DNA of 15,313 bases from Escherichia coli (GTDB lineage: Bacteria > Pseudomonadota > Gammaproteobacteria > Enterobacterales > Enterobacteriaceae). Under the pieces are notes generated by a model. That model saw only the letters and a list, made by a program, of their open reading frames with translations. It was not told the origin of the DNA and did no database searches. Each line of letters opens with the position of its first letter. Position 1 is the first letter of the stretch. Made by a program: the position numbers and the translations under genes. Shown one piece after another: positions 1 to 461 of this stretch. Location: NCBI RefSeq assembly GCF_003334315.1, contig NZ_QOWR01000076.1. One strand, given 5' to 3'.

Positions 1-461
1 CTTTTCAAAAGGGTATTTTGGCTTTGACATATTAGGGGCTATTCCATTTCATCGTCCAACAAAATGGGTGCAGTACAGGGTTGATAGAAATATCTCCTGG
101 GGCTTCATCTTTCCAGACCTCAGAGTAAACCTGAAACCGGAAAGCTTCAGGCACCCGCCGTTATCTTACCCTTCCTCAACAAAATAGCTGTTTATTTATA
201 CAGTGAGTCCTGTTTCGGACTTCTCACTCCTCATTTAATCAACTGAAGCTGAACCCGTTTTTTTCTGCATGACTCAATCGTCAAAATTCTTCGCCACCAG
301 TCAGCACTGCCATAACTTGTCACATTGCAAAAGTAGCCAAATTGCTTCAGGCACCATCAGTTCACCATCACCAAAAAAAAGAAACATTCCAGAACTTCCG
401 CATCTCGCCCAGCCGCTCCGACTTCTATACTGAATAGAAAACGCCAACATAAGAGAAACCT

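Follow-up and report, generated by a model that had tools for sequence, protein, structure and literature searches.

The 461 bp preceding ybdK at the start of the analysed stretch of Escherichia coli DNA (15,313 nucleotides, hereafter the window) have been identified as the promoter-proximal remnant of a chromosomal hokE/sokE type I toxin-antitoxin locus disrupted by the insertion sequence IS150, a reading to which a probability of about 93% is assigned. As judged by sequence comparison, positions 1-461 are a mosaic of one end of IS150, the orphaned promoter and leader of hokE together with a 3' fragment of sokE, and the spacer in front of ybdK (Table 1). The interruption of hokE/sokE by IS150 is already known, and the allele is common and published. 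An earlier interpretation made from the letters alone (the sequence-only reading) had regarded all 461 bp as non-coding; this does not hold for positions 1-77, which belong to a mobile element and include the first 10 codons of its reading frame.

Table 1. Features assigned in and next to positions 1-461 of the window (strand "." where none applies).
Feature	Position	Strand	Basis or remark
IS150 left end (IRL side)	1..77	-	terminal inverted repeat TGTACTGCACCC..., 5' UTR and first 10 insJ codons (ATG 30..28)
GGG, one copy of the 3-bp IS150 target-site duplication	78..80	.	single copy in K-12
Orphaned 3' part of SokE, 35 of 60 nt (loop, terminator 3' arm, U-rich tail)	78..112	+	K-12 identity and annotation
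hokE mRNA leader, first 79 nt (5' tac end and long 5' stem, plus half of the Sok-terminator hairpin, namely its first)	78..156	-	Rfam RF01794; now joined to IS150 in place of mokE/hokE
Hairpin 1, local, 10 bp, at the hokE mRNA 5' end	129..152	-	folding, -13.0 kcal/mol, z = -3.2
-10-like box TAAGAT of the putative hokE promoter	163..168	-	paralog alignment; 6 nt upstream of the putative +1 (156); inferred assignment
Upstream (promoter) end of the hokE module	157..224	-	edges of tandem duplications and of a plasmid copy in other strains
Hairpin 2, straddling the hokE-module boundary	202..228	.	folding, z = -1.95 (+) / -2.81 (-)
ybdK upstream spacer	225..461	+	100% K-12 identity; no K-12 feature there
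ybdK, carboxylate-amine ligase, anchor neighbour	462..1580	+	ORF list and PGAP annotation in identical genomes

Positions 78-461 are 100% identical to E. coli K-12 MG1655, and the match breaks exactly at ...GGGTGCAGTACA, which is the IS150 terminus. Strain 300709 is identical to the window over its first 700 bases and strain L6-21 over all 15,313, and in both the order is entD, IS186/IS421, hokE, IS150, window position 78 onward and ybdK. The sequence-only reading had placed hokE/sokE on this side of ybdK, transcribed away from it, in agreement with the K-12 annotation. The K-12 MG1655 locus (b4415 / b4835) has the same DNA over 78-461 and the same entD - IS186 - hokE - ybdK order; there, however, the leader and sokE are uninterrupted and only IS186 is found, downstream of hokE, whereas here an additional IS150 splits both.

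In the window-identical genomes (loci L001 and L005) the element is a complete IS150 of 1,443 bp, which continues for 1,366 bp past the window edge, shows 0 mismatches to the K-12 element annotated IS150, and is itself annotated as "IS3-like IS150 transposase". Its insJ/insK gene is called by PGAP in the identical genomes as a joined coding sequence with a programmed frameshift, and most of this gene lies outside the window. The minus-strand reading frame running off the left edge does begin with the ATG at 30..28 and translates as MSKPKYPFEK; this peptide equals the K-12 InsJ N-terminus, and the frame is the start of insJ, unrelated to hok. The insertion flanks read GGCAGCCCCAGGG/IS150/GGGTTGATAG, with GGG duplicated at both IS150 ends, whereas K-12 carries a single CCCCAGGGTTGATAG and hence a single GGG. 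Since the K-12 identity stops at the IS150 terminus and GGG flanks the 1,443-bp element, window 1-77 is assigned to its IRL end and 78-80 to one copy of the target duplication. The insertion point falls after hokE leader nucleotide 79, at window 77/78, and IS150 sits inside a predicted stem-loop which, depending on the strand, is the second hairpin of the hok leader or the Sok terminator. With a 40-nt query able to seed only on a true junction, the exact hokE::IS150 junction was found in 374 of 5,426 complete E. coli genomes, once in each and always on the chromosome; this recurrence makes an assembly artefact at 77/78 unlikely.

A PGAP pseudogene ("hypothetical protein, frameshifted") is annotated at window 29-246 on the plus strand, extending out of the IS150 interior over the junction and lying antisense to the hokE leader. 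A comparable pseudogene is called over the empty site, without IS150, in most genomes, and the call is probably an annotation artefact seeded by the reading frame antisense to hok.

The hok leader has been recognised by means of Rfam family RF01794. When host-only DNA was searched, the model gave a 3'-truncated match covering model positions 1-83 of 157 (46.2 bits, E = 2.2e-9) and ending at window position 78, compared with 84.4 bits for the intact K-12 locus (gathering score 59); only the 5' half of the leader lies in the window. A full-length match at 156..1 (63.7 bits) was rejected as a complete leader, its 3' half being IS150 sequence forced into the global alignment. The supposition that hok leader and sok antisense sequences lie within the window is thereby borne out, with minus-strand leader at 156..78 and, by K-12 identity, plus-strand antisense sequence at 78-112; the resemblance of 1-300 to hok mRNA leaders that it implied is given by the same host-only match.

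In the K-12 annotation sokE occupies 607733-607792 and hokE 607836-607988. As window position p equals 607845 minus the K-12 coordinate, sokE would span window 112..53, and positions 78-112 (+) correspond to the 3'-terminal 35 of the 60 SokE nucleotides. The intact K-12 SokE is predicted to fold into a single-stranded 5' tail and a GC-rich hairpin (z = -2.8), while the 35-nt remnant forms no hairpin (z = +0.75). A complete Sok gene, consisting of promoter, 5' recognition tail and terminator hairpin, is not contiguous here: IS150 separates the promoter and 5' 25 nt from the last 35 of 60 nt, so that the sokE promoter, these 25 nt and the second GGG copy all lie on its far side. The sequence-only reading had found no recognisable sok terminator in the window, and rightly so, because only the 3' arm of the terminator remains there.

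The toxin gene is located beyond the edge. No Hok-like peptide is present in the ORF list of 1-461, as previously noted, and in the window-identical genomes the hokE ORF starts 1,438 bp to the left of position 1. HokE is encoded there as a 50-aa ORF (locus L005, 3411-3563, minus strand) which matches Pfam PF01848 (E = 9e-8) and the NCBIfam Hok models and is called HokE by PGAP; HokE of K-12 MG1655 gives the same family matches with the same scores. A contiguous promoter-leader-(mok)-hok unit is absent, the 1,443-bp IS150 lying between leader nucleotide 79 and the remaining 71 nt plus hokE, and these 71 nt are all that hokE retains of its native leader past IS150. An intact hok/sok locus, with a leader beginning in the window and a Hok ORF no more than about 300 bp past its left edge, had been suspected from synteny. 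The K-12 synteny is indeed correct and the 5' part of the leader is in the window; nevertheless, such a locus is scarcely credible. IS150 occupies the next 1,366 bp, and one has to go 1,438 bp from the edge to reach the hokE ATG in a genome identical over 15,313 bases, with no Hok ORF in the nearest 300 bp or so. Moreover, the leader is split at 77/78, its match ends at model position 83, and a source without the rest of IS150 would contradict the first 77 bases of the window.

On its other side hokE is bordered by IS186/IS421, which lies 18 nt past the hokE stop codon and displaces the hokE 3' UTR; the same insertion is present in K-12. The IS186/IS421 site (L005 3334-3411; L002 3489-3508) falls within a GC-rich palindrome, GCGGGGA..TCCCCGC, and the displaced 3' UTR contains a putative fbi element and terminator. 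In the 3' UTR of an IS-free locus (L006), direct reading reveals AGGCACCU, complementary to leader nucleotides 1-8; the tac-fbi duplex energy calculated with ViennaRNA for this locus was equalled by 310 of 500 shuffles.

The CCTGAA/TTCAGG pair pointed out by the sequence-only reading is present at 130-135/146-151 and extends, as minus-strand RNA, to the 10-bp hairpin 1 (152..129). On this strand 1 of 200 shuffles folded as well, while the plus strand is unremarkable (z = -0.95); the hairpin is unchanged in a divergent allele (locus L009, NZ_CP024889). It is an alternative to, or a competitor of, the long conserved 5' stem at 144..109, which appears in the predicted 79-nt fold and in the Rfam consensus. 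A 5' metastable hairpin of this kind is expected from the folding pathway of the R1 hok mRNA.

Alignment of hokE with its paralogs hokB and hokA revealed a shared -10-like box (TAAGAT, TAGGAT and TAGAAT, respectively) 6 nt upstream of GGGTGC, and nothing shared upstream of this box. Because the box is common to the three genes, the hokE promoter is placed at about 163-200 on the minus strand; the Rfam model and the paralogs together suggest a transcription start at 156, although the promoter is a weak match and shows no good -35 element. A consensus promoter and terminator scan of 1-520 returned none that was strong or complete, a result that is uninformative either way, given the split Sok terminator and a hokE promoter that departs from consensus.

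Upstream, the hokE module is bounded at 224/225. Both the duplicated unit of locus L007 and the plasmid copy L008 end at window-equivalent position 224 (...GGACTTCT), and positions 225-461 are therefore assigned to the ybdK spacer. Of 5,426 genomes, 5,280 contain this spacer, which falls into two allele classes; an Rfam search of 225-461 gave no match, and K-12 has nothing annotated between ybdK and sokE. Weak Rfam matches to NEAT1_3, snoU36a and sR9 (E = 0.8-8.6) were dismissed as chance, being far under the gathering scores and belonging to eukaryotic or archaeal families. Window 157-224 was likewise considered and rejected as a within-genome repeat, which two-piece BLAST matches and a match on a plasmid had suggested: it is single in L005, L006 and K-12, and the two-piece BLAST matches are tandem hokE duplications elsewhere.

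The second inverted repeat of the sequence-only reading, AGTCC/GGACT, is real, with its arms at 206-210/217-221, so that the start given earlier (205) was one base off. It belongs to the imperfect hairpin 2 (202-228), which is modestly better than shuffles on both strands. In L009 two outer pairs are lost through uncompensated changes at 204 and 205; in addition the duplicated module does not include the outer 3' arm, there is no T-run, and the hairpin is not common to the hokA and hokB paralogs. As its outer pairs are broken uncompensated, it spans the module edge and it is followed by no T-run, hairpin 2 is probably not a functional or conserved RNA structure, nor a terminator.

These features of the right-hand part would also suit a mere ybdK promoter or 5' regulatory spacer, with hairpins arising by chance and no hok content at all. 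The scan of 1-520 yielded no consensus promoter or terminator, hairpin 2 is only weakly significant with an outer stem that is not conserved, and 225-461 does look like plain spacer, which is the best description of that part. For the region as a whole this explanation is very improbable, since the covariance model of the hok leader matches 78-156 at E = 2e-9 and this DNA is identical to that of the K-12 sokE/hokE leader; the IS150-interrupted hokE/sokE remnant is retained.

Several further observations concern this side of the locus. Within the spacer, a 54-aa ORF is found at 269-433 on the plus strand (MTQSSKFFATSQHCHNLSHC...), without an obvious Shine-Dalgarno sequence and absent from the K-12 annotation; in L009, the divergent allele, 11-nt and 1-nt deletions together restore the frame and so keep it open. 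In locus L007 (NZ_CP148282, 1122-2071) the entire 469-bp hokE module is tandemly duplicated between entD and ybdK, the two hokE copies being linked by the 34-nt GTCGGCAAAACTCATCATTGCTCTTAAAACGAAA; such tandem duplication occurs in many E. coli, about one quarter of the spread rows. On the 277-kb plasmid pCUPSTF6_1_01 (L008, NZ_CP180633, 12-2976) a chromosomal-type hokE module is located between two IS186/IS421 copies. This arrangement resembles a composite transposon and appears to be derived from a tandem-duplicated hokE locus. Finally, window 78-1081 equals both K-12 and strain 300709, while past about position 1082, within ybdK, it departs from the two at shared positions, with 34 mismatches to K-12 in the next 2.3 kb or so; this suggests a recombination breakpoint inside ybdK at about 1082.

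The hokE site is one of several at which IS150 has entered a hok leader. IS150 is found at nearly the same leader position, the edge between loop and 3' arm of the Sok terminator hairpin, in the three paralogs hokE, hokB and hokA (junctions at window 77/78, L003 2550/2551, and L004 1633/1634 and 3076/3077), and all three IS150 copies are sequence-identical. The hokA::IS150 of K-12 and hokB::IS150 (e.g. strain KFu024) thus share the element and almost the leader position with the allele described here, but they are found at other paralogous loci, in the neighbourhood of trg and of cspA/glyS. In hokE::IS150 the duplication, in hok sense, is CCC, after ...TATCAACCC. In hokB::IS150, present in 554 of 5,426 genomes, AAC is duplicated after ...TATCAAC; this site lies 2 nt upstream of that in hokE, and the element has the same orientation. 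In K-12 hokA::IS150 one IS end lies at ...AAATCAAAGT, the orientation is opposite, and no duplication is seen, which is attributed to a 39-nt adjacent deletion.

Among the 374 hokE::IS150 genomes, 66 carry the element at the identical nucleotide, in the same orientation and with the same GGG duplication, on a different hokE/sokE allele. In this divergent allele (L009, 377-1820, compared with L005, 3635-5077) differences begin 8-17 nt from the IS ends; the allele has one inserted nucleotide in the loop and several changes within the 5' tail of SokE, and its HokE and YbdK are different as well. As the differences start so close to each end of the element, independent insertions are favoured over the spread of one event, and the comparison suggests that IS150 entered the same hokE site independently. 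The recurrent junctions point to a putative target-site preference of IS150 for the Sok terminator hairpin region.

Other IS3-family elements, IS1397 and ISKpn1, insert into the loops of REP/BIME palindromes and thus strongly prefer one kind of stem-loop-forming DNA as target. The predicted preference of IS150 for the Sok terminator hairpin, as suggested by its junctions, may be likened to these by analogy: the IS3 family and a stem-loop DNA target would be common to them, while the target class differs (REP/BIME as opposed to hok leaders). New IS150 insertions beside hokC, hokE and mokB have been reported during experimental evolution of E. coli B (PMC5419217), and hok/sok homologues are among the mobile-element insertion hotspots described in bioRxiv 10.1101/527788.

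The locus may be compared with the prototype hok/sok of plasmid R1. In that system, Sok prevents the translation of mok/hok, and RNase III cuts the duplex. Both belong to RF01794 and PF01848, with a common leader fold, an antisense RNA with 5' tail and terminator hairpin, and a membrane toxin of about 50 aa; in contrast to R1, the locus described here is chromosomal and interrupted by two IS elements, and the plasmid-stabilisation role is inapplicable. In the uninterrupted chromosomal locus, the hokE promoter (about 163-200, minus strand) would start an mRNA of about 420 nt at position 156, with a 147-nt structured leader followed by the 50-codon hokE toxin ORF, and a 60-nt SokE would be transcribed from the opposite leader strand, ending at 112. 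The insertion of a complete IS150 after leader nucleotide 79, inside the SokE terminator stem-loop and with duplication of GGG, has left the putative hokE promoter and 79-nt leader beside ybdK, sense-oriented into insJ, whose ATG lies 126 nt from the putative start; at the same time the sokE promoter and 5' recognition tail have been parted from the terminator 3' arm and U-tail. From this geometry we infer that the normal hokE mRNA and the normal 60-nt SokE could no longer be made, and that toxin and antitoxin are decoupled. The hokE locus is probably non-functional as a killing system.

The interrupted allele has been named sokE::IS150 in PMC11551753 (NAR 2024), where it is described for an XL1-Blue derivative, for more than 400 natural isolates, said to be arranged "exactly as" in that derivative, and for some Shigella flexneri; according to the same source, the K-12 sokA is likewise disrupted by IS150. 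The present allele is likened to sokE::IS150 by description, IS150 being in sokE in both and the main text of that paper giving no junction coordinates, and the count of 374 genomes agrees with the prevalence reported there. In that account sokE+ suppresses the RecA-dependence seen with sokE::IS150, the mechanism not being investigated in the text concerned. Given this difference in phenotype from sokE+, sokE::IS150 may not be simply inert.

It is conceivable that the allele is rewired instead of dead, with the hokE promoter feeding the IS150 transposase, or read-through from IS150 yielding HokE without functional SokE, or both, so that mild toxicity or a stress phenotype could result. The minus strand carries the hokE leader, insJ/insK and hokE alike, the putative hokE promoter lies 126 nt upstream of the insJ ATG, and the SokE terminator is lost; furthermore, replacement of sokE::IS150 by sokE+ suppresses RecA-dependent viability in the engineered strains, as far as this is described in PMC11551753. 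Nevertheless, rewiring is considered unlikely: the hokE promoter is a weak match, stable carriage by about 7% of complete genomes argues against substantial toxicity, and the sokE promoter and 5' target-recognition tail persist, from which a longer antisense RNA may still repress. Tentative as well, and held to be less likely than not, is the broader proposal that IS150 would be near-site-specific for Sok terminator stem-loop DNA (approximately ...TATCAAC/C...), and that the resulting alleles, perhaps rewired, could underlie the RecA-dependence phenotype.

With regard to annotation, a nominally "non-coding" stretch of 461 bp has been resolved into a mosaic, with little significance beyond that. 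The sokE-disrupted allele occurs in some laboratory derivatives and in about 7% of the complete E. coli genomes, and users of these strains should know of the disruption, because PMC11551753 ties sokE::IS150 as opposed to sokE+ to a viability phenotype. The nucleotide-precise, recurrent IS150 insertions in hok leaders would provide a handy natural system for the study of target choice in the IS3 family.
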